A stretch of DNA of 64,000 nucleotides from an uncultured delta proteobacterium (GTDB lineage: Bacteria > Desulfobacterota > Binatia > UBA9968), in NCBI GenBank assembly GCA_963737905.1, contig CAVTUQ010000025.1, positions 96,001 to 160,000 on the forward strand. The letters are read 5' to 3'. The position numbers and the translations under genes are program-made. This document shows positions 9,446 to 49,173 of the stretch, piece after piece; the stretch's first letter is position 1, and every line of letters starts with the position of its first letter. The notes under the pieces were generated by a model, which worked only from the letters and a program-made list of their open reading frames with translations, did not search any database and was not told where the DNA came from.

Positions 9446-9590
9446 AGATCACAACTCCAACATTGTATGCCGGCGGTGAGGAAGTCAAGAAAAAGAGAAA
9501 TCTTGACCGGCGTTTCAAATCGCAAGCATGAGCGTATCACAAGGGAACCCTGATTGAAGACCCGTGGGTTTGATGATAGACGAAACACCT

Positions 9591-11660
9591 ATGGCGAAAT
9601 ACCGCGTTACCGTCGACACCGGGGGAACGTTCTCCGATTTTGTTTTTTTCAATGAAGATAGCGGTGAGATCAGCATCACGAAAGTCCCTTCGACCCCCAG
9701 GGAACCCTTTCAGGCTGTCCTCAATGGCGTCAAAGAGCTCATCGATAGCGGCCCGGCAGCGAGAGACATTTCTTTTTTCTGCCACGGCACAACGGTTGGG
9801 ACCAACACACTCCTGGAGGAAAAGGGCGCAAAGACGGGCCTGCTGGTCACGCAAGGCTTCCGGGGAATTTACGAGGTGATGGAGCAGACGCGCGGCTACG
9901 GTCCGGCCACTTACGATCTCTTTTTCGAGAAACCACGACTCCTTGCCCCACCCTACCTCACTGAAGAGATTCCCGAGCGCGTCGATTTCCGTGGCACCGC
10001 GTTAAAACCCATCGATGTCGAAGCATCGCTTCAAGCGGTTCGAAACCTGAAAAAGAAGGGCGTCCAGTCGGTGGCGGTCTGTTTTCTTTTCTCGTTCTTA
10101 AATCCCGATCACGAGCTAAAAATCAAAGAGATCTTCGCCGAAGAATTTCCCGAGGCGAGTCTCTCGCTTTCCTACGAGGTGCTACCGCAGATCCGCGAGT
10201 TCTACCGGATGAGCACGACGGTAATCAACGCCTATATCGCCCCGGTGATGGCGAACTATGTCAGCCGTCTCGAAAACCGGCTAAAGGAGATGGGCGTGAT
10301 GACGCCCAAACTCTATATCATGCAGTCCAACGGCGGGGTTTCGACCTTCCAAGGCTCCGCCAGAAAACCGGTGGCCACGGTCCTTTCCGGTCCGGCGGGA
10401 GGCGTTATTGCTTCCATGGGCACCTGCGAGCGGATCGGCGTCAATAACATCATCACCTTTGACATGGGCGGCACCAGCTGCGACGTCGCGTTGATCCATC
10501 AGGGCAATCCGGTCATCACGACTCAGGGAAGAATCAACCAGCGACCCATCAGTCTGCCGATGCTCGACATTCACACCGTGAGCGCCGGCGGCGGCACCAT
10601 TGCGCGCATCGACGCGGTGGGCGCGCTGCAAGTCGGACCCGATAGCGCCGGCGCCGACCCCGGTCCGGTTTGCTACGACCGCGGCGGTCAAGAGATTACG
10701 GTCACTGACGCCAACGTGGTCATCGGGGTTCTTGACCCAAATCATTTTCTCGGCGGCCGGATGAAACTGGACAAGATCAAAGCGCAGCGCGCCCTCGAAG
10801 AGAAAATCGCCAAGCCTCTCGGCTTGAGTTTGCTCGAAGCAGCAGACGGAGTACTGGACATTATCAACGTTAAAATGGAAGAGGCGATCAAGGCGGTCTC
10901 TTCCCAGCGCGGTTACGACATCCGCGACTTCACCTTGGTAGCCTTCGGTGGGGGCGGGCCCATGCATGCGGGTCGAATCGCCCTCGATCTCGGTATTTCC
11001 GCGGTCCTCATACCGCTGACACCTGGCGTCCACTCCGCCCTGGGTTTATTAATGTCCGACGTAAAGCATGACTACGTCCGCTCAAAACTGGCCGGGCTCA
11101 ACGAACTGGATTTAGATGAAATCAACGGCCTATTCGCCCAACTGATCGAACAGGCGAAAGCCGATCTGCGCGCTGAAGGATTCGACGACGCAGAGATCAG
11201 GCTCGACGCCTTTCTCGATCTGCGTTACGCCGGTCAAGGATACGAGTTGACCGTCCCCTGTCCGCTGCCGCCGCTGAAAAAATCGGATCTCGATCTGATG
11301 CGGCAACGCTTCGACATGCAGCATGAACAAGCTTCCGGCCACAAAGCCGAAACGGAGCCTGTGGAACTGGTCAGTCTCCGGCTGATTTCCTATGGGCTCG
11401 TGCCCCAGGCGAAGCTCTCTCCGGCAAAGGCCACCGGAAGAAGAGTTGAAGAAGCGAAGACCGGCGAGAGAAAAGTCTACTTCGGAAAGCAGCATGGTAC
11501 CCTCGACTGCCAGATCTACACACGGGATGGGCTGGAACCAGGACATAAGATTTCCGGCCCGGCGGTGATCGAGCAGCTGGATACGACGACCGTAATTCAT
11601 CCTGAACAGCAAGCGACCGTGGATAATTATCGGAATTTGATTGTCAGGGAGAAAGCGTAA
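9591..11660 (+). CDS. Hydantoinase A/5-oxoprolinase ATP-binding subunit
   Basis: VDTGGTFSD, HGTTVGTN, SGPAGG, FDMGGTSCD and AFGGGGPMH motifs. Confidence 0.93.
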   Translation: MAKYRVTVDTGGTFSDFVFFNEDSGEISITKVPSTPREPFQAVLNGVKELIDSGPAARDISFFCHGTTVGTNTLLEEKGAKTGLLVTQGFRGIYEVMEQTRGYGPATYDLFFEKPRLLAPPYLTEEIPERVDFRGTALKPIDVEASLQAVRNLKKKGVQSVAVCFLFSFLNPDHELKIKEIFAEEFPEASLSLSYEVLPQIREFYRMSTTVINAYIAPVMANYVSRLENRLKEMGVMTPKLYIMQSNGGVSTFQGSARKPVATVLSGPAGGVIASMGTCERIGVNNIITFDMGGTSCDVALIHQGNPVITTQGRINQRPISLPMLDIHTVSAGGGTIARIDAVGALQVGPDSAGADPGPVCYDRGGQEITVTDANVVIGVLDPNHFLGGRMKLDKIKAQRALEEKIAKPLGLSLLEAADGVLDIINVKMEEAIKAVSSQRGYDIRDFTLVAFGGGGPMHAGRIALDLGISAVLIPLTPGVHSALGLLMSDVKHDYVRSKLAGLNELDLDEINGLFAQLIEQAKADLRAEGFDDAEIRLDAFLDLRYAGQGYELTVPCPLPPLKKSDLDLMRQRFDMQHEQASGHKAETEPVELVSLRLISYGLVPQAKLSPAKATGRRVEEAKTGERKVYFGKQHGTLDCQIYTRDGLEPGHKISGPAVIEQLDTTTVIHPEQQATVDNYRNLIVREKA

Positions 11661-11670
11661 GCTTGAGAGC

Positions 11671-11743
11671 CGATTTGAACGTCTTGAACCTGGCTTGCTG
11701 ATCGTTCCAAGTCGTTCAATTCGTTCAAAAAGTTCAAAGCGTT
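11671..11743. repeat. Palindromic TTGAAC/GTTCAA micro-repeat element (~9-nt units)
   Basis: TTTGAACGTCTTGAACC...CGTTCCAAGTCGTTCAATTCGTTCAAAAAGTTCAAAGCGTT. Confidence 0.75.
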
Positions 11744-11759
11744 ATCGCTAGGAAAAGAT

Positions 11760-13493
11760 ATGAACGTTGATCCCGTAACTTTACAAGTCATTCAGGCGCG
11801 GCTGGCCGGCATTGTCCAGGAGATGCAGAACTCGCTCTTTCGCACCGGCTACTCGACGATTATCCGCGAGTCCCAAGATGCCAGCTGCGCGATTCTAAAT
11901 ACCGACGGTGAAGTGGTGGCCCAGCATGTGGTCCTGCCGCTCCATATGGGCGCGTTTCCGGCTTGCGCCGCGGGATTGCTGAAGAGCTACACCGCTTCGG
12001 AGCTTCACGAGGGCGACGCCTTCATCACCAACCATCCCTATCTCGGCGGCAGTCCCCACGCGCCGGATATGGCGGTGTTGAGCCCGATTTTCTACCAAGG
12101 CGACTGGGTCGGCTTCGCCGCTAATCTCGCACACAAGAGCGACATCGGCGGCCCCGTGCCCGGAAGTTGCTGGAGTCAAGCCCGGGAGATCTACCAGGAA
12201 GGTCTCCACGTACCACCGATCAAATACGTTTCCGGCTATCAAATCAGCAAAGACATCGAAGCCGTTCTCGGCGCCAACAGCCGCACGCCGGAGCTGGTCG
12301 TTGGGGACCTGCGCGGCCAAGTGGGAGCCGCACGGCTCGGAGAGAAACGCTTCCAGGAAATGATGGATCGATACGGCAAGGAAACGATCCTCGCCTCCTA
12401 CGATCAGTTGTTTGCGATGACCGAAGCGAAGGTGCGCGCTGAAATCGCTTCGTGGCCCGATGGCACCGGCGAGGGCGAACGGTTCGTCGACAGCGACGGC
12501 ATCGAACTCGACAAGCCGGTGCGCCTCCATGTGCGCATGAAAAAGAAAGGCAAAGAGCTCCTTTTTGACTTCACGGGCTCCGCCGACCAGACCAAGGGGC
12601 CTGCCAATATCCGTCCCACTATCGTACGCGCGGCCTGCTGCTATCTTCTCACCTGCCTGACGGACCCGGCGCTGGCCATCAACTACGGGCTGGCAAAGGT
12701 GATCGATATCAAAGTTCGCGAGGGCAGCGTGGTCAACCCGCGCTTTCCCGCTCCGGTAAACACGTATAACCCCACCGTGCATGCGCTGGTGGAGGCGTTG
12801 CTGGAAGCCTCCAGCCAGATCACGCCCCACAAGAAGGTCGGCGACGGCTGCAGCAGCCGGTCGATCATCATCGGCGGCCGCAGCAACAAGACCGGCAAGA
12901 GCTACGTGCAATATGAGATCTTTGGCGGCGGCTCAGGCGGACGCAGCGGCAAGGACGGCGTCTCCGGCACCAATGTCAATCAATCCAACGCCAGGATCGC
13001 GCCCATCGAAATTATCGAATCGGAATTCTCCACCCGTCTGCGTCGTTTTGAATTGATTCCCGATTCCGGCGGACCGGGAAAGTTCCGTGGCGGACTGGGG
13101 TTCATCCGCGAGTACGAGCTGCTGGACCATGACGCGAGATTTTCGCTGCGTTCCACCAAACACACCGTCGCGCCCAGAGGCATCGACGGCGGCTCGGACG
13201 GCAAGACCGGCCATTGCACTTTGAACCCCGGCACGGACAAATCCCAAGTCATCCCTTCACGATACTCGGATCACACGCTTCACCCCGGCGATGTCGTCCG
13301 GCTGGAAACCCCGGGTGGGGGCGGCTTGGGTTACGCGTTGGAACGAGACCCAGCCAGGGTACTTAACGACGTCCGCAACGGTTACGTGACCTCACAAAAG
13401 GCGCGGGAAGTCTACCGGGTTGTTGTTGATGCCAATGACGGCGACTACGTGCTGAACGAGGCGCGAACGCGGGAGCTGCGCGGACAGACTTAG
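11760..13493 (+). CDS. Hydantoinase B/oxoprolinase subunit (copy 1)
   Basis: TGYSTIIRESQDASC, NHPYLGGSPHAPD, AHKSDIGG, DSGGPGKFRGG and ETPGGGG motifs. Confidence 0.93.
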   Translation: MNVDPVTLQVIQARLAGIVQEMQNSLFRTGYSTIIRESQDASCAILNTDGEVVAQHVVLPLHMGAFPACAAGLLKSYTASELHEGDAFITNHPYLGGSPHAPDMAVLSPIFYQGDWVGFAANLAHKSDIGGPVPGSCWSQAREIYQEGLHVPPIKYVSGYQISKDIEAVLGANSRTPELVVGDLRGQVGAARLGEKRFQEMMDRYGKETILASYDQLFAMTEAKVRAEIASWPDGTGEGERFVDSDGIELDKPVRLHVRMKKKGKELLFDFTGSADQTKGPANIRPTIVRAACCYLLTCLTDPALAINYGLAKVIDIKVREGSVVNPRFPAPVNTYNPTVHALVEALLEASSQITPHKKVGDGCSSRSIIIGGRSNKTGKSYVQYEIFGGGSGGRSGKDGVSGTNVNQSNARIAPIEIIESEFSTRLRRFELIPDSGGPGKFRGGLGFIREYELLDHDARFSLRSTKHTVAPRGIDGGSDGKTGHCTLNPGTDKSQVIPSRYSDHTLHPGDVVRLETPGGGGLGYALERDPARVLNDVRNGYVTSQKAREVYRVVVDANDGDYVLNEARTRELRGQT

Positions 13494-13510
13494 ATTTTGC
13501 TTGTTAACCA

Positions 13511-13577
13511 CTTGAACGATTGGAACGTTTTGAACGGCTTGAACCGCGGTAGCGTTTCGTTCCAGTCGTTCAAAACG
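13511..13577. repeat. Palindromic TTGAAC/GTTCAA micro-repeat element (9-nt units)
   Basis: CTTGAACGA TTGGAACGT TTTGAACGG CTTGAACCG ... CGTTCCAGT CGTTCAAAA CG. Confidence 0.8.
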
Positions 13578-13598
13578 TGAAATAAGGTTTGGGCTTTC

Positions 13599-15371
13599 AT
13601 GTCGCTTGTCGACCCCATAACTTTGCAAGTCATTCAGGCGCGGCTGGCCGGCATCGTCCAGGAGATGCAGAACTCGTTGTTCCGCACCGGCTACTCAACT
13701 ATTATTAGAGAATCCCAAGACGCGAGTTGCGCGATTTTGAACACCGCCGGTGAAGTGGTGGCGCAGCACGTCGTGCTGCCGCTCCACATGGGCGCATTTC
13801 CAGCCTGCGCTGCGGCTATCCTGAAAGCTTACCCAGCAGCCGAAATCAAACCAGGCGACGCCTTCATCACCAACCACCCCTATCTGGGCGGCAGCCCGCA
13901 CGCACCGGACATGGGCGTGCTCACGCCGATCTTCTACCGGGGCGATTGGGTGGGATTCGCGGCGAACATGGCTCATAAGAGCGATATCGGTGGAACCGTA
14001 CCTGGCAGTGGCTCGGGCAACGCGCGAGAGATTTTTCAGGAAGGGCTTCACTTGCCTCCAGTAAAGTTCGTGTCGGAGCTCCAGCCGGTCAAAGAGATCG
14101 AAGCCATGATCACGGCCAACAGCCGTACTCCGGCACTGGTCATCGGTGATTTGCGGGGTCAGGTCGGCGCCGCGCGCCTGGGGGAACGACGAATTGCTGA
14201 GCTGATGGACCGTTACGGCGAAGAAACGGTGCGCCAATCGACAGAGCTATTATCCATCTACACGGAAAACCGCGTGCGTCAGACCCTTGCCTCATGGGCC
14301 GACGGCGAGTCGGAAGGAGAGAGCTTCGTCGATCACGACGGCATCGATCTTGACCGGCCGATCCGTGTGCATGTGAAGATCGGGAAAATAGGAAATCGAA
14401 TCCACTTCGACTTTAGCGGCTGCAGCGATCAGACAACGGGTCCGGCAAACATTCGACCCCCGCTGGTGCGGGCCGCTTGCGCCTATTGCTTGGTCACCCT
14501 GGTTGACCGCTTCCTGCCCATCAACCAAGGGTTGGCACGCGTGATTGAAGCGACGTTTCGTGAAGGCAGTGTCGTTAACCCGCACTTTCCCGCGGCCGTC
14601 AATACCTACATGCCAACGGCGCTCACCGTAGCGGAGGCGATTTTCAGGGGCCTGGCTCCCTTCGTTCCAGAGAAGCGAATCGCCGGAGGCTCCGGCAGTG
14701 CGGCTTTGGTTTTAGGCGGGCACGACACCAACAGCAACCGGGCCTATGTGCACTATGAAATCTTTAGCGGCGGCACCGGGGCCCGCTCCGGCAAAGACGG
14801 TGTGTCAGCAACCGCTTTTCATCTGAGCAACTGCAAGACCGCGCCCATCGAAATTATCGAATCGGAATTCCCCACCCGGGTGGAACGCTTCGAAATGATT
14901 CCAGACTCGGGCGGGCCAGGCCGATGGCGCGGCGGCTTGGGTTTCGCCCGCGACTATCGAATTCTGGCGGATGAAGTGCGCTTCTCTATGCGCACGGACA
15001 AACATGCGATCGCACCCTGGGGCAGCGACAACGGCAGTGCCGGGGGTAAGGGTTCCTGCGTTATCAATCCAGGGGCTTCGAACGCAAAACGGCTTCCCTC
15101 TCGTTTTGGCGATCACCGCCTGCAAAGAGGCGATCTGCTGCGCCTCGAGCGCCCCGGCGGCGGGGGGCTCGGTCATCCTCTGGAGCGTCCGGTGGAAAGT
15201 GTCTTTGAGGATGTCCGGCAGGGCTATGTATCCATTGAGCGCGCAGGATCGGATTACGCGGTCGTGGTGGAGCTGGTCGATGGCGAGCCGATGCTGAATC
15301 TTCCTCAAACTCGAATTTTACGAGGAGAAAAGCAAAAAAATACTGGCAAATATGACTCGCCTCTGCTATAA
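13599..15371 (+). CDS. Hydantoinase B/oxoprolinase subunit (copy 2)
   Basis: Same motifs as copy 1; near-identical N-terminus. Confidence 0.93.
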   Translation: MSLVDPITLQVIQARLAGIVQEMQNSLFRTGYSTIIRESQDASCAILNTAGEVVAQHVVLPLHMGAFPACAAAILKAYPAAEIKPGDAFITNHPYLGGSPHAPDMGVLTPIFYRGDWVGFAANMAHKSDIGGTVPGSGSGNAREIFQEGLHLPPVKFVSELQPVKEIEAMITANSRTPALVIGDLRGQVGAARLGERRIAELMDRYGEETVRQSTELLSIYTENRVRQTLASWADGESEGESFVDHDGIDLDRPIRVHVKIGKIGNRIHFDFSGCSDQTTGPANIRPPLVRAACAYCLVTLVDRFLPINQGLARVIEATFREGSVVNPHFPAAVNTYMPTALTVAEAIFRGLAPFVPEKRIAGGSGSAALVLGGHDTNSNRAYVHYEIFSGGTGARSGKDGVSATAFHLSNCKTAPIEIIESEFPTRVERFEMIPDSGGPGRWRGGLGFARDYRILADEVRFSMRTDKHAIAPWGSDNGSAGGKGSCVINPGASNAKRLPSRFGDHRLQRGDLLRLERPGGGGLGHPLERPVESVFEDVRQGYVSIERAGSDYAVVVELVDGEPMLNLPQTRILRGEKQKNTGKYDSPLL

Positions 15372-16999: not shown

Positions 17000-18184
17000 C
17001 TAACCTCGGACCGCAAGCGGGTCGGGCGGCACGTGATATCTCACTGAACCGGCCTTGCCGGCGTGCAGCGAATCGTCCATCTTCGTATCGATGATCGCAT
17101 GATCCGGATCACGCATAACATTCATCGGGTCTAAGTTTTGCGCGACTTTGTCGATTTCGCGCCTGAGCATTTCGCGATACATCACCACGCCGCGATCTGA
17201 ACCGGCGAGCCGTTCACGAGTGCGATCGAGTATCGGCCCTTGGGTTTCCCACGCCATAAAATCTTGGGCATCCACGTCATCGAGGCGAAATTTCGTGAAG
17301 GGATGAAGGGCGTCGAGTGGGTTCTTGAAAGGCTTGCGGTAGTTGATCGGAACGTCGTCTTTGTTCTCACGCGGCTCCGCCGAGTCCGGGACGAAGTGGA
17401 CGTAAACGATCCAGGTATGGGTGTCGTCGATGGGCACGCGAATCTGCGTGCGATTGGCTTGCCGCAAGACGGTCGGGAATAACAGCGGATGCTCCTCCAC
17501 TTTCCCATCCTTGAAAACGCGCCGCTTAAGAATACCGTGAGCAAATTCTTCGAGCTCGAATTTCTCGAGATTGTCGATGGTTCCCCGCGTCGTGCTTTGG
17601 ACTTTGAAGCCGTCGGTGACAAGCTCTTGATGGAGAATATGCAGATGGGCCGTATCGACGGAATTTTCCATCGCTTGTAACCAGTTGCAGTCGAGCTGCG
17701 GCAATGCGCGCAGCCAGTGCCAACCATCCGTGCGCGCCCAGACATCGTATTTTGGAATGACCGGGGCGGGCTCGGGTCCGAGATAGGCCCAGTAGAGTCC
17801 GGCTAATTTTTGCACCGGATAGGCTTTGTGTTTCACGGTTCGACAAAAATTGCTCTCCGCCGGCTCTGCCGGTGTTTCCAGACAGTTGCCTTTCGTATCG
17901 TAGAGCCAGCCATGGTACGCGCAGGCGATGCCGCGCTCTTCGACTCGGCCATAGGAGAGCGAAGCACCGCGGTGCGAACAACGATCGTGCAGCAACCCGA
18001 CTTCACCCTTCGTCGTCTGGAACAGCACCAAATCCTCGCTGAGGATACGGATAAACTTCGTCGGACTGTCCGGCGTCAAGTCCGCCGCGATTGCAACCGG
18101 ATGCCAGTAGCGGCGCAGCAATTCGCCCGCCGGCGTCCCCGGACCGACGCGAGTCAACATCTCATTTTCTTCCGCAGTCAGCAT
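17000..18184 (-). CDS. Rieske non-haem iron oxygenase, phthalate 4,5-dioxygenase-like
   Basis: N-terminus MLT.EEN..LTRVGPGTP.G.LLRRYW; Rieske CSH...CAYH; ENSVDTAHLHILH; QD.MAWETQG. Confidence 0.9.
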   Translation of the reverse strand: MLTAEENEMLTRVGPGTPAGELLRRYWHPVAIAADLTPDSPTKFIRILSEDLVLFQTTKGEVGLLHDRCSHRGASLSYGRVEERGIACAYHGWLYDTKGNCLETPAEPAESNFCRTVKHKAYPVQKLAGLYWAYLGPEPAPVIPKYDVWARTDGWHWLRALPQLDCNWLQAMENSVDTAHLHILHQELVTDGFKVQSTTRGTIDNLEKFELEEFAHGILKRRVFKDGKVEEHPLLFPTVLRQANRTQIRVPIDDTHTWIVYVHFVPDSAEPRENKDDVPINYRKPFKNPLDALHPFTKFRLDDVDAQDFMAWETQGPILDRTRERLAGSDRGVVMYREMLRREIDKVAQNLDPMNVMRDPDHAIIDTKMDDSLHAGKAGSVRYHVPPDPLAVRG

Positions 18185-29812: not shown

Positions 29813-31076
29813 CTAGATTTTTATCTTGATGTCATCTTTAAAGTCACCCAGCAGAGATAACGCGATTCCCTGTGAGCCAAAAAGCATGGAGGCGAGATCA
29901 ACGACCGCATCACGGGAGACAGCGCGAATCTCCCGGCATATCTCATCCGTGGCGATCGGCTTCCCGAAATAGATTTCATTACGTGCGATATGGCTCATCC
30001 ATGAGTCCGTGGACTCGAGGCCAAGCATCATGCTGCCCACCAGTTGTCCCTGGGTCCGGCGAATTTCCTCGTCTTTGACATGACCGGCGGCGAGCTGCCT
30101 TAGTTCCTTGAGAATCAGCTCGACAACTTCTTCCACCCATTCTACGCTCGTGCCGGCATAGACACCGAGGTAGCCGATATCCTGATAGGACGATGAGAAC
30201 GAATAGACCGAATAAGCCTTGCCGCGCTTTTCGCGGATCTCCTGAAACAACCGAGAACTCATGCCACCGCCAAGCAAGGTATTTAGGACATAGGCCGTGT
30301 AACGCTGCGGATGGGTTTGGTGCAATCCCGCTACTCCGAGACAAAGATGAGCCTGCTCAAGCGATTTGGTATGTTGGAAAATGCCGGCTCTGCATCGCCG
30401 GCGCGCCGGCGCCGTCCTGGGAGTTTGAACGGCCGTCGTGGGCGGAGTCGCGCACGGAACCCAGCCTTTCGTTGAGCGCCTGGACCAACTCCTGGTGGCG
30501 CAAGTGGCCCGCCGCCGCAACGACAACCCGCCTCGGCCCATATCGCGACTTGAAGAAATTTAAGAAATCCTGCCGTCGAAACGAGTTCACCGTTTCCGCA
30601 CTGCCGCAAATGGGACGAGCCAGGGGATGATCCTTGAAGAAGTCAAGGCTGAAGAGATCGTGGATGTAATCGTCCGGCGTATCTTCCGCCTGGGAGATTT
30701 CCTGGAGGATGACAGACCGCTCGCGTTCGATCTCGTCGCCATCGAAAATAGAATGAAGAAAAATGTCGGTCAATAGATCGATCGCCAGCGGCAGATCTTC
30801 GTCGAGGATCTTGGCGTAGTAACAGGTGTGTTCTTTGGCCGTAAAGGCATTGAGAACGCCACCGATCGCATCCATCTCTTCAGCGATCGCGGCGGCGCTA
30901 CGCCGCTCGGTGCCCTTGAAGAGCAGGTGCTCGATGAAGTGGGAGATCCCGTTCTCACGCGGCAATTCGTGCCGGGAACCGTTCTCAACCCATATTCCCA
31001 AACTTACCGATCGATGATCCGGCATCTCTTGGGAAACGACTCGGATCCCATTATCGAGGACGGCTTTAGCAAACAT
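29813..31076 (-). pseudogene. M16B zinc peptidase (pitrilysin family) split by a +1 frameshift near 30387
   Basis: HFIEH inverted Zn motif in ORF 30357..31076; LGGGMSSRLFQEIRE in ORF 29813..30541; junction CAG AGC C GGC ATT has one extra C; probably a sequencing error. Confidence 0.8.
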
Positions 31077-43243: not shown

Positions 43244-43771
43244 ATGATTATTGAATACAAAGGGAAAAGACCAAAGATCTCTGCCACGGCTTTCATTGCA
43301 CCCACCGCTGTTTTGATCGGCGACGTTACCATCGGCGACGAAGCAAGCATCTGGTGGGGAGCGGTTTTGAGATCAGATCAAAATGCCAATCCGATCGTCG
43401 TGGGTGACCGCACGAGCGTACAGGACAATTGCGTGATTCACTCCGGCGAAGCCCCAACGATTATTGAAGCGGATTGCACGATCGGCCACGCTGCGATCAT
43501 GGAGGGTCCGCTGGTCAAACGCGGCGCGATTATTGGAATGAATGTGACTCTCCTAGAGAACGTCGAGATCGGCGAAGAGGCTCTTATCGCCGCTGGCAGC
43601 GTCGTCGTTCCCCACACCAAGATTCCACCCCGTGTTCTCGCCGCAGGGAGCCCGGCTAAAGTGAAAAAAGAGCTCACCGGCGAGGCCCTAAACTGGATCA
43701 AAATGGGGTCGTCGACCTATGTAAACCTATGCCGAAGTTATCTCGCCGGCGATTACAAAGTTATTGCCTGA
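43244..43771 (+). CDS. Gamma carbonic anhydrase family protein
   Basis: Hexapeptide repeats; LIGDV.IG; AVLR.D; QDNCVIH. Confidence 0.9.
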   Translation: MIIEYKGKRPKISATAFIAPTAVLIGDVTIGDEASIWWGAVLRSDQNANPIVVGDRTSVQDNCVIHSGEAPTIIEADCTIGHAAIMEGPLVKRGAIIGMNVTLLENVEIGEEALIAAGSVVVPHTKIPPRVLAAGSPAKVKKELTGEALNWIKMGSSTYVNLCRSYLAGDYKVIA

Positions 43772-43826
43772 CTATCCCGGGGAACCATTTCCTGAAAACA
43801 GCCACGTCAACAATTAAGACAAGGCG

Positions 43827-43864
43827 TTGACAAATAACGACAGAAGCGATACTGGTCAGACCAG
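43827..43864 (+). promoter_or_regulatory. TTGACA plus a FadR/PdhR-type operator CTGGTCAGACCAG
   Basis: TTGACA at 43827; palindrome TGGT-N3-ACCA at 43853-43863 over the -10/+1 zone. Confidence 0.75.
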
Positions 43865-43881
43865 CAGACAGCTAGACCTAA

Positions 43882-44622
43882 ATGCTCCACGCTATTAAGA
43901 AGACTCGCATTCACGAGGAAGTGGTGACCCAGATTCATGATCTCATCAGAGAGGGTCGACTCAAGGCCGGCGATCAGCTGCCCTCCGAGAGAGAACTTTC
44001 GGAGACATTCAAGGTGAGTCGGACTTCCGTGCGCGAAGCTCTCCGGGCACTGGAAACCAAAGGACTTATTATCAGCCGGACGGGAATGGGAAATTTTGTC
44101 GCCGACTTGCCTATCGAATCTTTAATCGCGCCCCTGGCCAAACTGCTCATCGAAGAAAAGACTGCCCTAGCCGACATTTTTGAACTTCGTAAGCTCATTG
44201 AACCGCACATCGCAGCATTGGCGGCGGAGCGCGCAACCATGAAAGACATTGAGAGAATGAAAAACATCCTGGAAAAGCAGAGTGAAGCGGTCATTCGAGG
44301 GGAAACCGGAGTGGAGGCCGATGCTCAGCTGCATTTTGCTATCGGACAGGCAACTCAAAATCAAGCCCTCGAGAAACTTGTCTCCGGCTTGATGGAGATA
44401 TTAAGCCATAGCCGCGAGGAGTCCCTCCAAACACTCGATCGCAGGAAGGCATCTATAGAATCCCACCGAAAAATTCTCGCTGCCATTGAACAGCACAACG
44501 GGACAAAAGCCCAAGAAGCGATGTTCCACCACATCGAACAGGTCGAAGAAAATGTGCTTTCATCGAGGAAACCACCTACCAATAACAACCATAACCGTTT
44601 AGAAGAGAGGAGTGTTTCATGA
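43882..44622 (+). CDS. FadR/GntR family transcriptional regulator
   Basis: LPSERELSETFKVSRTSVREAL; FCD domain. Confidence 0.95.
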   Translation: MLHAIKKTRIHEEVVTQIHDLIREGRLKAGDQLPSERELSETFKVSRTSVREALRALETKGLIISRTGMGNFVADLPIESLIAPLAKLLIEEKTALADIFELRKLIEPHIAALAAERATMKDIERMKNILEKQSEAVIRGETGVEADAQLHFAIGQATQNQALEKLVSGLMEILSHSREESLQTLDRRKASIESHRKILAAIEQHNGTKAQEAMFHHIEQVEENVLSSRKPPTNNNHNRLEERSVS

Positions 44623-45818
44623 TCAAACGCGTAGAGGTCAACTATCGAGGTATATTTCAGAAGAACCTGGGAAAGAAGATCGGCAGCGACATTGTTATGA
44701 TCGCGAGCCGAATGGGGCAGAGGGCATTCTCCAACGGTCGTTACAGTGACTCGCCGGAGAGAAACGGGATTCCCTGTAAGTACTTCGCCTTCGTTTCTCC
44801 GGATCTTTCAGAGGAGGAACTGGAAGCAGAATGCGGCGCCAAGCTGGAGATCGACGACGCCAACATCTCCGTCGTGCTCGACGATACGATGTGCAAGGGC
44901 GTCGAACCCTGGGGTTGGCACGGCGTGCGGCCGATCAATGAGAGGGTGGTCAAGGACGGCTGTCTGCTCGTGGTCTCCAACAAAAAGCCGGAAGAGCTGC
45001 TAAAATTCATCGGCAAAAAACCTTACAATTACCGGCTGGCGATCCTTAGCGGGGACGCCAGTCTCGCGGGTCTGTGGGTCAATAAGGACGACTTGACCCA
45101 CGAGCGGATCTTGGGCGGAATTGCCGCTGTCGATCCGGCAGTGATCAGCATCGAAGCCGTAGAATCCTACCTTTTGGAAAAGACCAAACAAAAACATCGT
45201 GCAGAGGCGGCGCGGGCGGCTTACGAGTCGCTCAGGCAGGAGGCCAAACCTCCACGGGTGAAGACGGTCACGCCGAACGACGGAATCGTGTGGACGCATG
45301 AGATACCCGTGCTGCCCAAGTGGTTCGAGATGCAAGAGGGCGCCGCGGTTCCGGCGGTCAAGCGTGGATTCGAAATCGGCCCGCGGGGACAATCGAGAAA
45401 TGCCATGTTCAAGCGCGGCACCACCAAGACCCAAAGGCCTGCGGTCCGATTCGATCTCTGCACCAAGTGCACGCTTTGCTGGGTTGAGTGTCCGGATGAA
45501 TGCTTCGATCCGACCAGCGACGGCTACTACGACATCGAGTACCAGTACTGCGTTGGTTGCGGCAAATGCGCCGAGATCTGTCCGGTGAAAGAGTGCATCG
45601 TGATGGTGGATGAGCTGCAATTCGAGGACGACCACAGTCCGTGGGAGCATTGGAAGAAAGATTCCAAAGAATACATTCAATGGGTCGAGGGGAAAAAGGG
45701 CAAAGACCGGGTTTCCTATCCCGTCGTAACCGGCAAGGGCATCACCGTGACCCAGGGAGTAGTGATGCCTGAGGGAAAGATCGTACCCGTCAGAAAGACG
45801 GAGGAGGTTGAAGTATGA
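44619..45818 (+). CDS. Oxalate oxidoreductase-like delta subunit (gamma domain fused to 2x[4Fe-4S] ferredoxin)
   Basis: CTKCTLCWVECP and CVGCGKCAEICP; N-terminal gamma-like domain; ATGA overlap with the regulator. Confidence 0.85.
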   Translation: MIKRVEVNYRGIFQKNLGKKIGSDIVMIASRMGQRAFSNGRYSDSPERNGIPCKYFAFVSPDLSEEELEAECGAKLEIDDANISVVLDDTMCKGVEPWGWHGVRPINERVVKDGCLLVVSNKKPEELLKFIGKKPYNYRLAILSGDASLAGLWVNKDDLTHERILGGIAAVDPAVISIEAVESYLLEKTKQKHRAEAARAAYESLRQEAKPPRVKTVTPNDGIVWTHEIPVLPKWFEMQEGAAVPAVKRGFEIGPRGQSRNAMFKRGTTKTQRPAVRFDLCTKCTLCWVECPDECFDPTSDGYYDIEYQYCVGCGKCAEICPVKECIVMVDELQFEDDHSPWEHWKKDSKEYIQWVEGKKGKDRVSYPVVTGKGITVTQGVVMPEGKIVPVRKTEEVEV

Positions 45819-47056
45819 GTGTCGCAGTCGCACAAACAAAATCAGATCAATCAGGTGTCTACGAGCGTGAAGACCTTCTGAACGGTTGCCAGGCCGTCGC
45901 GCATGGCGTGCGCCTGGCGGACGTGGACGTGATCGCCGCTTATCCGATCCGTCCTTATACCGAGGTGATGGACGCGCTCTCTAAACTGATCGCCGACGGT
46001 CAATTCGACGCCGAGTACATCATCGCGGACAGCGAGCACTCGCAGTTCGAGATCGTCAAGCACGCCAGTTCCGTAAACGCGCGCGCCTTCGGCGGATCGA
46101 GCGGCACAGGTTGGATGTACGGTATGGAAGCGCTGGTCGTTACGGCGACCGACCGTCTCCCGCCTCTTTTCGTAGTGGGCAATCGCGCGCTTGACGATCC
46201 GGGCGCTTTCGGCGTCGAGCACAACGACGCAATGGCGGTCCGGGACATGGGCTGGCTTCTCTGCTGGGTGACCACCCCGCAGGAAGCGCTGGAGCACGTG
46301 CTGATCGGCTACCGTATCGCCGAAGACAAGAAAGTCAGGATGCCGATGGGATTGGCAATGGACGGCGCCTTTCTCACCCACTCGCAGCACATGGTCAAGA
46401 TCCCATCGCCGGAAGCGGCGAAGAGATTTCTCCCGCAGTACGACCTCGCCGAGCGGCGCCTCCATCCCGACAATCCGATCTCCATCGCGCCGCAGGTCAA
46501 CGAGGATTGGGTTATGGAGCTCAGACGCCAGAACTGGGAGGCCGCCAAACGGGCGCGCAGCGTGATCAAGGAAGCCTATAAAGAATTCAACGACATCTTC
46601 GGCGATCGCTACGCTGCGCCCTACTATTTCGACGAGTTCATGACCGACGACGCGGAAGTGGTCCTGATCGGCATCGGCACGGTGGCGGCGCCGGCACGCA
46701 CAGCGGTGCGCCGCATGCGCGAGAAGGGACAAAAAGTAGGTTACGTGAACCTGCGCTGGTTCCGGCCTTTCCCGACAGTTGAGCTGCGGGAGTGCTTGAG
46801 CCGCTTCAAAGCGGTCGGCGTGGTCGATAGGGATTTCGCCCATGGTTCGCCGGACAACGGCGGCATCCTGATGCAAGAGGTCCGTTCTTGCCTCTACCCG
46901 GCCAAGAATCGGCCGGCGATCGTCAATTTCATGGGCGGCCTGGGCGGGCGCGATCTCTCCATCGCAGACGCGCAGAAGATGTACGATATAACGCAACAGG
47001 CGGCCAAGAAGGATTCGATGGACGAATTCGTAACGTGGATCGGTCTCAGGGAGTAA
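45815..47056 (+). CDS. Oxalate oxidoreductase-like 2-oxoacid:ferredoxin oxidoreductase alpha subunit
   Basis: GC.AVAHGVRLADVDVI..YPIRPYT; SEH; GGLGGRD. Confidence 0.88.
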   Translation: MSVAVAQTKSDQSGVYEREDLLNGCQAVAHGVRLADVDVIAAYPIRPYTEVMDALSKLIADGQFDAEYIIADSEHSQFEIVKHASSVNARAFGGSSGTGWMYGMEALVVTATDRLPPLFVVGNRALDDPGAFGVEHNDAMAVRDMGWLLCWVTTPQEALEHVLIGYRIAEDKKVRMPMGLAMDGAFLTHSQHMVKIPSPEAAKRFLPQYDLAERRLHPDNPISIAPQVNEDWVMELRRQNWEAAKRARSVIKEAYKEFNDIFGDRYAAPYYFDEFMTDDAEVVLIGIGTVAAPARTAVRRMREKGQKVGYVNLRWFRPFPTVELRECLSRFKAVGVVDRDFAHGSPDNGGILMQEVRSCLYPAKNRPAIVNFMGGLGGRDLSIADAQKMYDITQQAAKKDSMDEFVTWIGLRE

Positions 47057-47073
47057 AATAGGAGGGAAGGATT

Positions 47074-48069
47074 ATGTCAACTGCACCACAAATCGATTAC
47101 GAGAAGATCAAAGGCGTTCACAAAATTCCGCTGGAAGAGCTTTACACCTCCGGCCACCGCACCTGTCAGGGATGCGAGTCCGCGACGACGATGCGCGGCT
47201 TTATCAAGGTGGCGGGTTCGCGCACGGTCGTCACGGGAGCGACCGGCTGCATGTATGTAGCCAACACCTCGTACCTGACCACGCCCTGGATCGTGCCCTG
47301 GATGCACACCCAGCTCGGCGCCGGTGGCTCGTCCGCCGTGGGCATGGCCGCGGGGCTGCGCGCGCTCAAGCGCAAGGGGAAGATCAAAGACGAGAAGATC
47401 AATGTCATCAACTTCTCCGGCGATCTCGGCGCCGGCGATATGGGAATCGGCGGCATCTCCGGCGCCCTGCAAAGCGATTACGACTTGCTGATCATCATGT
47501 ACGACAACGAATCGGCCGCGAATACCGATATTCAAGCGACGGGTTTGACCACCTATGGGGCGCAGACGACGTTCACGCCTCCAGGCACCAAGCACTCCAT
47601 CATGCAGCGGCGCTGGAAGAAAAATGTTGCCGGCATGCTGGCCGTCGGCCATCCGACCTGCCGCTACGTGGCCACCGCCTGCGCCACCTTTCCGCCCACG
47701 GACTATTTGAACAAGGTCCAAAAGGCGCTCGCTATCGGCGGCCCGACCTTCATCCACACCTACGATCCCTGTCCCAAAGGTTGGGACTATCACCCTCGCT
47801 TCTCAAACGAGCTTGGCGAGTTGGGAATCAAATGCGGCATCTATCCGCTCTACGAAATAGTCGACGGGAACATCATTTACACCTGGGACGCGCGCAAGAC
47901 GGGCAAGGGACGAATTCCGGTGAAAGAATTCCTCACCAAACAGGGCCGCTTCGATCACCTTCAAGAAGAGCACTTCACCCATATCCAGAAGATGGTGGAC
48001 GAGATGTGGGAGGAATGGGAGTTTCCCGGTGTCGCGCCGATAAAGGGCACCTTGAAGGCCAGAATTTAA
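47074..48069 (+). CDS. Oxalate oxidoreductase-like beta subunit (ThDP, [4Fe-4S])
   Basis: GHRTCQGC; TGCMYVANTSY; GD...YDNES.ANT; PCPKGW. Confidence 0.88.
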   Translation: MSTAPQIDYEKIKGVHKIPLEELYTSGHRTCQGCESATTMRGFIKVAGSRTVVTGATGCMYVANTSYLTTPWIVPWMHTQLGAGGSSAVGMAAGLRALKRKGKIKDEKINVINFSGDLGAGDMGIGGISGALQSDYDLLIIMYDNESAANTDIQATGLTTYGAQTTFTPPGTKHSIMQRRWKKNVAGMLAVGHPTCRYVATACATFPPTDYLNKVQKALAIGGPTFIHTYDPCPKGWDYHPRFSNELGELGIKCGIYPLYEIVDGNIIYTWDARKTGKGRIPVKEFLTKQGRFDHLQEEHFTHIQKMVDEMWEEWEFPGVAPIKGTLKARI

Positions 48070-48087
48070 ACGCCACGTTCCCCTGCC

Positions 48088-48117
48088 AAAAGGCCCCAAA
48101 AATGGGGCCTTTTTTTT
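48088..48117 (+). terminator. Intrinsic terminator of the oxidoreductase operon
   Basis: AAAAGGCCCCA-aaaa-TGGGGCCTTTTTTTT. Confidence 0.9.
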
Positions 48118-48327
48118 GCCGCGAAGAAGAGGTCTATTCGCAGCGACTTGTAACTTGGCCGTCGTTCCAAGTAAAAGGCAACTATCAGCATTCCGCGCCG
48201 AGAGAAGGTCGCATGGCAACGTAATGATTCGGCTGTCATCCGGCCGCGCCTCGCCAGCTGACCTTTTACAGTTTATTCGCTGCCCGCCTGATTGTTTTTT
48301 CTATTACGATCCAATAGCCTACCGGTC

Positions 48328-49173
48328 ATGGGTGCAGTGACCTTCCCCAAAGCAGCGCAACACTCTCAGCGAAGCAGAGCCTCCATTGCTTTTCTCAGTG
48401 CGTCAGTTCTGTTGACCGCGCTGGTATTTCTCTCGTCTTCCGCCCATTCCTCTTGCCGTGACCCCGAGGTAGCGCAGGGCTTTGGATCTCTTGCCTACGC
48501 GGCGAATGTCGATGCGACAATTCAATATTTCGGTCACAATTTTTTTCTCATCACCACCAGCAAGGGAACCCGCATCGTCACCGACCCATTGGGGCCGGGA
48601 TGGTATCCAAACCCGAACGTGGTCGGGGACGTGGTCACCGTCGGGAAAGAGATGTTCAATCACAATGCGGTCCAGATCGTCCGGGGCAATCCGCTGATTC
48701 TCCGCGGGCTCAAGGACTATGGCGCCAACTGGAACACCGTTAGCATGAGTTTCAAAGATACTTTCATCTATAACGTCCCGATTCATCAAAACGCCGAATT
48801 CACCGAGGGCATTCATGGCTCTGCATTCGTTTTCGATCTCGGACCGTTGTGCATCGCCCACTTGGGCGACTTGAGCCAAAAGCTGAACGAGCAACAGATC
48901 AAAGCGTTTGGCAAGGTGGACGTTGCCCTCACACCCATCGGGGGAGGTCGCACGATGGGGCCGGACTTGGCGCGGGAAGTCCTGGCGCAGCTCAAGCCCA
49001 AGATTGCAATTCCCATGCATCACCGCGACAACCCTTATCTGGTCAGACAGTTCACAGCAGGTCTCAAGACAGAGATCATGAAGACCGACACACTAGGGGT
49101 GAGCAAAGGCGCTCTCCCGTCCTCGTTGGAGATCAGAGTTCTTCAGCCTCGCGGTGCGATGCGTTACGAGTGA
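48328..49173 (+). CDS. Exported MBL-fold protein with degenerate metal motif
   Basis: YFGHNFF; IVTDP; IAHLGD; PIGG; IPMH; N-terminal hydrophobic segment; start uncertain. Confidence 0.8.
   Translation: MGAVTFPKAAQHSQRSRASIAFLSASVLLTALVFLSSSAHSSCRDPEVAQGFGSLAYAANVDATIQYFGHNFFLITTSKGTRIVTDPLGPGWYPNPNVVGDVVTVGKEMFNHNAVQIVRGNPLILRGLKDYGANWNTVSMSFKDTFIYNVPIHQNAEFTEGIHGSAFVFDLGPLCIAHLGDLSQKLNEQQIKAFGKVDVALTPIGGGRTMGPDLAREVLAQLKPKIAIPMHHRDNPYLVRQFTAGLKTEIMKTDTLGVSKGALPSSLEIRVLQPRGAMRYE

Follow-up and report, generated by a model that had tools for sequence, protein, structure and literature searches.

Here we describe a four-gene operon on a 64,000-nucleotide stretch of DNA from an uncultured Binatia bacterium (the window: positions 96,001 to 160,000 of contig CAVTUQ010000025.1, assembly GCA_963737905.1), in which a GntR/FCD regulator is followed head to tail, at 43882-48069 on the forward strand, by the delta, alpha and beta subunits of a 2-oxoacid:ferredoxin oxidoreductase (OFOR). 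Judged by its sequence, the enzyme belongs to a large sister lineage of the oxalate oxidoreductase (OOR) of Moorella thermoacetica, and we consider that it is probably, though far from certainly, a variant of this coenzyme A (CoA)-independent enzyme, in which Asp128 of the alpha subunit perhaps replaces OOR Asp116. This reading appears the most likely because the fold is conserved together with the cofactor ligands and two arginines, no CoA loop is present in delta, the alpha subunit falls beside the OOR type in a tree, and the only substrate-specific neighbour genes found in relatives are oxalate genes. The Moorella enzyme (EC 1.2.7.10), from a thermophilic acetogen, is to our knowledge the only oxalate oxidoreductase that has been characterised. 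The features of the operon are as follows.

43829-43834, forward strand: putative -35 box (TTGACA) of the operon promoter, from direct reading
43852-43864, no strand assigned: perfect 13-bp palindrome CTGGTCAGACCAG, probable operator of the regulator, 18 nt 5' of the regulator start codon
43882-44622, forward strand: GntR/FCD regulator (FadR subfamily), first gene of the operon, 246 aa (open reading frame, Pfam)
44619-45818, forward strand: delta subunit, 399 aa (open reading frame, NCBIfam, PDB 5c4i_B)
45815-47056, forward strand: alpha subunit (domains I-II), 413 aa (open reading frame, NCBIfam, PDB 5c4i_A)
47074-48069, forward strand: beta subunit (domain VI), 331 aa (open reading frame, NCBIfam, PDB 5c4i_C)
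48088-48117, forward strand: intrinsic-terminator-like hairpin with U-run, 11-bp G+C-rich stem at 48088-48113 (folding)

The open reading frames (ORFs) lie where the original prediction, made from the letters of the window, had placed them, and the ATGA overlaps that it described at the regulator/delta and delta/alpha junctions can both be read directly, each with a GGAGG-like ribosome site ahead of it. Alpha and beta are separated by a gap of 17 nt, with AGGAGGG ahead of the beta start.

All three subunits find their best match in Moorella OOR (PDB 5C4I, 5EXD, 5EXE; NF045790-NF045792), whose subunits come in the same delta-alpha-beta order. For the alpha subunit (Pfam POR_N and PFOR_II) the best NCBIfam model is OOR alpha, at 387.6 bits and under the cut-off of 500, and the archaeal PorA model is second best at 327.6 bits, well under its cut-off of 550; the best PDB chain is 5c4i_A (E 3.7e-102), followed by 9bt4_B of the pyruvate:ferredoxin oxidoreductase (PFOR) of Methanosarcina acetivorans (E 1e-62). 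In the alignment to 5c4i_A, AYPIRPY of the query faces SYPIRPY of OOR, with query Arg46 at the position of OOR Arg31, and the query loop R124-A-L-D-D128-P-G-A131-F132 faces R109-T-L-D-P113-P-G-D116-F117. The query retains the equivalents of Arg31, Arg109 and Phe117 (Arg46, Arg124 and Phe132), and differs in having Asp128 for Pro113 and Ala131 for Asp116. As described in part of PMC5020499, Arg31 of the YPIRP motif binds oxalate, Arg109 is a conserved arginine, and Arg31 and Asp116 are important in the 'bait and switch' mechanism of OOR.

The beta subunit (Pfam TPP_enzyme_C) likewise scores best on the NCBIfam OOR model (327.3 bits, under the cut-off of 590), with archaeal PorB second at 262.6 bits and well under its cut-off of 405, and its best PDB chain is 5c4i_C (E 6.8e-76; next 9bt4_C, E 3.6e-50). 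The motif TGCMYVANTSY is identical in the query and OOR, and the four cysteines of the beta cluster are shared. Around the thiamine diphosphate (ThDP) site the query reads GDLGAGD...NESAANTDIQ where OOR reads GDGGAVD...NESYANTGIQ, so that GDG has become GD(L/I), Tyr141 Ala and Gly145 Asp, with the Asp and Asn of the ThDP motif retained. The motifs singled out by the original prediction (YPIRP, RALDDPGAF with Asp116 changed to Ala, TGCMYVANTSY and GDL...NTD) were all recovered in the 5c4i alignments, and the active-site differences among them are fixed in the clade.

The delta subunit consists of a gamma-like domain III fused to a 2x[4Fe-4S] ferredoxin domain (Pfam, residues 278-329), the same fusion that is found in OOR. 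The NCBIfam OOR delta model is its best (83.5 bits, under the cut-off of 230), and chain 5c4i_B matches best in the PDB, over query residues 3-337 (E 1.7e-14). The canonical Gly-rich CoA loop reads GxGGQG. Both the query and OOR lack a Gly-rich loop at the N terminus, reading YRGIFQK and ARGVVMN respectively, whereas a KorA-type OFOR of the same genome does carry one (IGGAAGQG). An AlphaFold2 model of delta, built from a 31-row alignment, has a mean predicted local distance difference test score of 61.8, with a good N-terminal domain and values below 50 for residues 227-335, and we claim nothing from it for the ferredoxin domain and the C-terminal extension. Foldseek places OOR delta chains at the top of its matches to this model (E about 1e-14, probability 1.0), followed by PorC gamma (target-normalised template modelling score 0.72). 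The 5c4i_B alignment and the Foldseek result bear out the earlier description of delta as a gamma-ferredoxin fusion without the Gly-rich loop. It is this missing loop, and nothing besides, that leads us to predict independence from CoA, which is required by all OFORs but OOR according to the portion of PMC12337175 consulted.

Beyond the region aligned to OOR, delta carries a C-terminal extension of about 62 residues (338-399; window 45630-45815) with the conserved positions SPWEHW...KKGK.RV.YP.VTG. This extension is missing from the Moorella OOR delta subunit and from the 309-aa delta of a related locus, L133, and may serve to protect the clusters or as a docking site for a partner.

The enzyme is widespread. 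A word-indexed search gave 7650 proteins at E ≤1e-30 among 8000 scored candidates; the best 120 of these are 79-94% identical and come from Binatia, Deltaproteobacteria bins, Zixibacteria, Chloroflexota, Acidobacteria and Armatimonadota, and one 90% cluster has 1212 member sequences. Those of the best 120 that are named are all labelled 'pyruvate ferredoxin oxidoreductase', except for one 'transketolase C-terminal domain-containing protein'. A collection of species genomes holds 205 stretches encoding a relative, of which the best 80 are 77-97% identical and nearly all from metagenome-assembled genomes of soil and groundwater phyla. These best 80 of 205 loci, many of them cut by contig ends, are the sample for the conservation and neighbour counts that follow, with the window added for residues (81). 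At a coverage of at least 85%, every one of the 80 loci has alpha, 72 have delta, 71 beta and 51 the regulator, with identities to the window proteins of 76-97% for alpha, 74-99% for beta, 66-95% for delta and 37-87% for the regulator.

Conservation within this sample is strict at the positions of interest. In alpha, GNRALDDPGAFGVEHN, the YPIRP Arg, Arg124 and Ala131 are invariant in 81/81 sequences; in beta, GD(L in 62, I in 10)G and YDNESAANTDIQA are invariant in 72/72, as are the proximal-cluster cysteines 31, 34, 59 and 233; and in delta, YRGIFQK is conserved in 72 of 73 sequences and the eight cysteines at 281-321 do not vary. Because they are invariant across the clade, we regard the odd active-site residues as selected features rather than errors. 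A literature search on oxalate oxidoreductase and its motifs gave, among the listings and the portions of text read, no paper dealing with this clade.

To place the clade, we searched 50%-identity representatives exhaustively (364 proteins at E ≤1e-30) and tabulated motifs for 107 rows, namely the query and 106 of 150 listed representatives, taken whole if 360-470 aa long and cut to their first 420 aa if fused. The motif LDDPGAF is shared by the query and five other rows; the Moorella form LDPPGDF is found in four, LDDPGNF in P0125 and LDQPGSF in P0228, and the remaining rows have YPITP-like motifs and a different loop; the YPIRP Arg is confined to the query lineage, its two intermediates and the OOR-type rows. 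A quick IQ-TREE analysis was made of 90 rows of 375-435 aa, a length filter that removed three short OOR-type rows, and rows judged partial or chimeric (P0122, P0135, P0148, P0208 and P0218) were also omitted; the OOR type is represented in this tree by P0128, chosen by motif, and not by Moorella OOR itself. All YPIRP-Arg rows form one clade apart from the PFOR rows, with a Shimodaira-Hasegawa-like approximate likelihood ratio test (SH-aLRT) value of 97, and support for the nested groups is 100 for the query clade, 99 with P0121 added, 91 with P0125, 93 with the OOR-type P0128 and 97 with P0228. The alignment and tree proposed as a check of the original prediction agree with it, in that the best NCBIfam and PDB matches and the SH-aLRT value of 97 place the enzyme in the OOR clade rather than among PFORs or 2-oxoglutarate oxidoreductases.

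The intermediates also suggest an order of events. Locus L132, which encodes P0125, combines LDDPGNF in alpha with an OOR-like beta subunit (GDG...YANTG), and the P0121-like locus L133, whose alpha is 53% identical to the query, combines LDDPGAF with an OOR-like beta and the 309-aa delta already mentioned. Since both pair a changed alpha with an OOR-like beta, the change in the alpha loop (Pro113 to Asp, with loss of Asp116) seems to have come first, and the beta changes and the delta extension are, from these sequences, specific to the query clade.

A second OOR-type lineage, the P0128 cluster of Vicinamibacterales, belongs to the same YPIRP clade and comes from a soil phylum in which the query clade also has many members, and differs in keeping the Moorella-like LDPPGDF in alpha and GDG...YANTG in beta; its alpha is 41-43% identical to that of the query. 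Among 301 sampled genomes of this order (that of genome G001), the P0128 type is present in 12 (85-90% identity to P0128) and the query type in 13 (42-45%). The two types never occur together in the 301 genomes (25 carriers), where the expected overlap is about 0.5, making this absence uninformative. Five complete Vicinamibacterales genomes each have one copy only. The operon of the P0128 type (L127:3139-10332; also L123-L131) adds a Cdc48-like AAA+ ATPase and a separate domain-III ORF, together with a 614-aa GltD-like flavoprotein fused to a ferredoxin domain and a NuoG/formate-dehydrogenase-like gene, and its composition suggests an NAD(P)-linked form.

The neighbours of the operon in relatives offer a clue to the substrate. 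The following genes, found by tblastn, recur in the 80 loci.

Formyl-CoA transferase (Frc): 10/80 loci; the L063 protein scores 682 bits on TIGR03253, cut-off 504
ThDP enzyme of the acetolactate-synthase/oxalyl-CoA-decarboxylase superfamily: 10/80 loci; every model below its cut-off
ADP-forming acyl-CoA synthetase: 6/80 loci; Pfam and NCBIfam domains
Oxalate/formate antiporter of the major facilitator superfamily: 7/80 loci; four scored 475-616 bits on TIGR04259, cut-off 335
TctA, of the TctABC carboxylate transporter: 18/80 loci; Pfam TctA

Frc or the oxalate/formate antiporter is present in 15 of the 80 loci, and no neighbour indicating glyoxylate, oxamate or mesoxalate was seen in the related loci inspected. 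By their predicted functions, formyl-CoA transferase and the antiporter favour oxalate over a related substrate. Frc lies downstream on the same strand in seven Binatia-type loci, and upstream, divergent from the regulator, in two Acidobacteria and one Terriglobia. In six of the seven downstream cases (L001, L006, L014, L019, L023 and L025) beta is followed on the same strand by a 570-aa ThDP enzyme, formyl-CoA transferase and a 711-aa ADP-forming acyl-CoA synthetase, and L017 has only the first two of these. The 570-aa protein matches PRK05858 best, below cut-off, and reaches 236 bits against a cut-off of 557 on the oxalyl-CoA decarboxylase model; the three-gene extension may, on these matches, be a divergent oxalyl-CoA branch. 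Six Binatia-type loci (L003, L021, L022, L029, L030 and L038) have, next after beta and on the same strand, a conserved ORF of about 236 aa; it is missing from the window and had zero matches in Pfam and NCBIfam. A cupin protein near L019 and L028 was considered as an oxalate decarboxylase and dropped, as no oxalate decarboxylase model matched it.

As a CoA-independent oxalate oxidoreductase, the delta-alpha-beta enzyme would use ThDP and three [4Fe-4S] clusters, converting oxalate to two CO2 without CoA and sending two electrons of low potential along the clusters to a ferredoxin-type acceptor. The ligands that this would require (eight delta cysteines, four beta cysteines, and the Asp and Asn of the ThDP motif) are intact. 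Arg46 and Arg124 would attract the oxalate dianion, and the acidic 'switch' would be supplied by Asp128, three residues ahead of Ala131 on the same loop, to which beta Asp152, beside Asn150, may contribute. Whenever an inspected lineage carries Ala or Asn instead of Asp116, it carries Asp instead of Pro113, which makes it plausible that Asp128 is a stand-in and may take over the role of Asp116. The original prediction had itself named a neighbouring Asp in place of Asp116, together with OOR-like kinetics, as an outcome that would tell against a new mechanism, and the loop sequences make that substitution plausible. The idea that beta Asp152 is an obligatory partner of the loss of Asp116 was rejected, as L133 pairs ALDDPGAF in alpha with the OOR-like GDG...YANTG in beta.

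Several observations weigh against oxalate as the substrate, or against so specific an assignment. The function is read from sequence, and all three subunits fall below the curated OOR cut-offs. Asp116 itself has given way to Ala131; the beta changes (GDG to GDL, Tyr141 to Ala, and Gly145 to Asp, which is Asp152 of the query) are clade-specific and flank the cofactor and the active-site Asn150, and could point to a different substrate. Neither Frc nor the antiporter is present in 65 of the 80 loci, the commonest neighbour across the 80 is TctABC (18/80), and the neighbours in the window are unrelated to oxalate: upstream are an Amidohydro_2 protein, an L-2-hydroxyglutarate oxidase (539.7 bits, cut-off 299) and a gamma-carbonic-anhydrase-like protein, and downstream is a metallo-beta-lactamase-fold protein. 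No frc, oxc or oxlT gene scored above cut-off in the organism's own assembly (6.7 Mb, 46 contigs, 87% complete). Across a class sample of 201 genomes the alpha gene (E ≤1e-100) is present in 15, comprising 10 of 13 genomes of the organism's own family, 4 of 25 of one other family and 0 in the remaining families, and Frc exceeds its cut-off in 1/15 genomes with alpha as against 36/186 without it; in the single genome with both, the two genes are 3.5 kb apart. Given the lack of a positive genome-level link with Frc, and an own genome without oxalate genes, the enzyme does not appear to be generally part of the frc/oxc pathway, and would either serve in its place or act on a different substrate. 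RNA data bear on expression to a limited extent: 21 public runs hold 20-40% of the operon's sampled 31-mers, 15 of them recorded as RNA, and contigs of four of the 21, soil metatranscriptome runs from four studies, cover 25-28 of 30 bins of 43700-48200 at no less than 90% identity, although contigs from RNA libraries are no proof of transcription.

A rival reading, on the doubtful side but deserving to be taken seriously, is one in which the fold and the CoA-independent chemistry are the same and the substrate is another small 2-oxo compound (glyoxylate, oxamate, mesoxalate or a short dicarboxylic 2-oxoacid), with the pocket retuned by the clade-specific changes. The beta changes, present in 72/72 sequences here and absent from the OOR-type, P0125-type and P0121-like lineages, indicate that the query clade has diverged further at the active site, and the missing frc, oxc and oxlT genes, the lack of a genome-level link with Frc and the prominence of TctABC all fit such a change. 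Set against this, the YPIRP Arg and Arg124, which in OOR bind the second carboxylate of oxalate (as given in part of PMC5020499), are invariant, and the only substrate-specific neighbours, spread over several phyla, are oxalate genes, with none seen for glyoxylate, oxamate or mesoxalate. An ordinary CoA-dependent pyruvate or 2-oxoisovalerate:ferredoxin oxidoreductase, as the database names of the close homologues and the second-best PorA and PorB models would have it, is very improbable. The four-subunit archaeal PFOR of M. acetivorans (9BT4), the second-best structural and family match, belongs to the same superfamily and also has separate alpha and beta subunits, but differs in its YPITP motif, in having gamma as a subunit of its own beside a small delta ferredoxin, and in its need for CoA; the query has Arg for Thr and a fused gamma-delta chain without the Gly-rich loop. 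The other rows of the motif table carry the Thr form or a variant, the query branches with the OOR type at an SH-aLRT of 97, and PorA and PorB fall far short of their cut-offs (327.6 against 550 and 262.6 against 405). Hardly credible at all, in our estimate, is a mainly reductive or redox-balancing module, for example one that uses reduced ferredoxin to carboxylate a C1 unit. In its favour, OFORs can in principle run in both directions (so stated in part of PMC13768988), and Frc, a NuoEF-like protein and a molybdopterin enzyme occur near the operon in some relatives. Against it, a CoA-binding loop that could accept a formyl or acyl group from CoA is lacking, the host with its two haem-copper oxidases looks aerobic or facultative, and none of the genes seen next to the operon is one for autotrophy.

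Should oxalate be the substrate, the consequences would extend beyond this organism. The clade is abundant and highly conserved in soil phyla (Binatia, Acidobacteriota, Chloroflexota and others), where it is labelled as pyruvate oxidoreductase. We put forward, tentatively and at rather less than even chances, the wider proposal that this is a distinct CoA-independent oxalate:ferredoxin oxidoreductase of aerobic or facultative soil bacteria of many phyla, in which the acid has moved from Asp116 to Asp128 (possibly aided by beta Asp152), and which forms a major frc/oxc-independent soil oxalate sink that marker-gene surveys and 'PFOR' labels overlook. A common soil carbon flux would then have an unrecognised sink yielding very low-potential electrons, surveys based on frc and oxc would undercount oxalotrophs, and the 'bait-and-switch' mechanism could be tested on a natural enzyme without Asp116. 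A survey of oxalate degradation in the gut omitted oxalate oxidoreductase on the grounds of too little information, as stated in the part of PMC8062136 consulted. If the substrate is another, the enzyme would represent a new specificity in the OFOR superfamily.

The host looks, from its gene content, to be aerobic or facultative. It carries, above cut-off, two genes for haem-copper oxidase subunit I and two for a ring-hydroxylating dioxygenase alpha subunit, along with two KorA-type OFORs, and in this respect, as a soil bacterium rather than an acetogen, it differs from Moorella. The O2-dependent Rieske chemistry attributed to the organism by the original prediction has its counterpart in a Rieske [2Fe-2S] oxygenase gene with a LigXa-like C-terminal domain at window 17003-18184 on the reverse strand, adjoining a GFO/IDH/MocA oxidoreductase and a solute-binding protein. 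Elsewhere in the genome, the best frc-like match (263 bits, below cut-off) adjoins an oxc-like ThDP enzyme (159 bits) at G000:C12:98601-102070, and these genes are, by sequence, a CoA-transferase and ThDP-lyase pair.

A further difference from the Moorella system is that an FCD-GntR gene heads the operon, and a homologue of this regulator stands ahead of delta in 51 of the 80 related loci. The protein has the GntR (6.2e-22) and FCD (2.3e-27) domains of Pfam, the same winged-helix and FCD build as LldR, PdhR, GlcC and NanR. Its nearest NCBIfam models are NanR, LldR, PdhR and GlcC, all below cut-off, with NanR best at 141.8 bits against 260, and the FadR model NF003444 gives 40.1 bits against a cut-off of 189. 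It is accordingly an equivalog of none of these five, and the earlier term 'FadR-regulated' holds for the FadR (FCD) subfamily of GntR proteins and not for FadR proper.

The operator proposed earlier is a perfect palindrome, and by sequence the probable target of the operon's own regulator. A palindrome of the TGGTnnnACCA kind over the regulator's own promoter is typical of the FCD-GntR subfamily. There is a single exact copy of CTGGTCAGACCAG in the window, and allowing up to two mismatches gives 4 matches at two places where 1.03 are expected. Of the 48 related loci with sufficient upstream DNA, 37 carry TGGTnnnACCA no more than 150 nt ahead of the regulator gene; these span Binatia, Chloroflexota, Acidobacteria and Gemmatimonadota bins. 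The putative -35 box TTGACA ends 17 nt ahead of the palindrome and is similarly spaced in most of the Binatia-type loci inspected; a sigma-70 promoter scan of 43500-48500 gave zero full matches. In the scheme that we envisage, the FCD-GntR protein would bind the palindrome that overlies the promoter and so keep its own operon repressed until a small carboxylate, presumably oxalate, releases it. Right after the palindrome (window 43865-43881; the same place in L002-L038), Binatia-type loci share a second conserved stretch, CAGACAGC(T/C)(A/G)GACC, which may serve as an additional half-site for the regulator or as a leader element.

At the other end of the operon, the terminator that the original prediction had called strong is present as a hairpin followed by a U-run, although a scan with the consensus terminator pattern did not flag it. 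Folding of 48078-48125 gives a hairpin of -18.3 kcal/mol (z -2.16), and 5 of 200 shuffled sequences were equally stable. The bin at 48079-48200 is without cover in any of the four RNA runs, which is a weak hint only; neither this bin nor the other gaps in cover are evidence for transcript ends.

Two other loci of the window are of interest for annotation. At 9564-15368 a hydantoinase/oxoprolinase A gene is followed by two tandem full-length B-subunit genes (577 and 590 aa). At 29816-31076 on the reverse strand, the catalytic and inactive domains of an M16 peptidase are encoded as halves in two ORFs that overlap by about 180 nt, a split that may reflect a frameshift, an assembly error or an effect of ORF picking.

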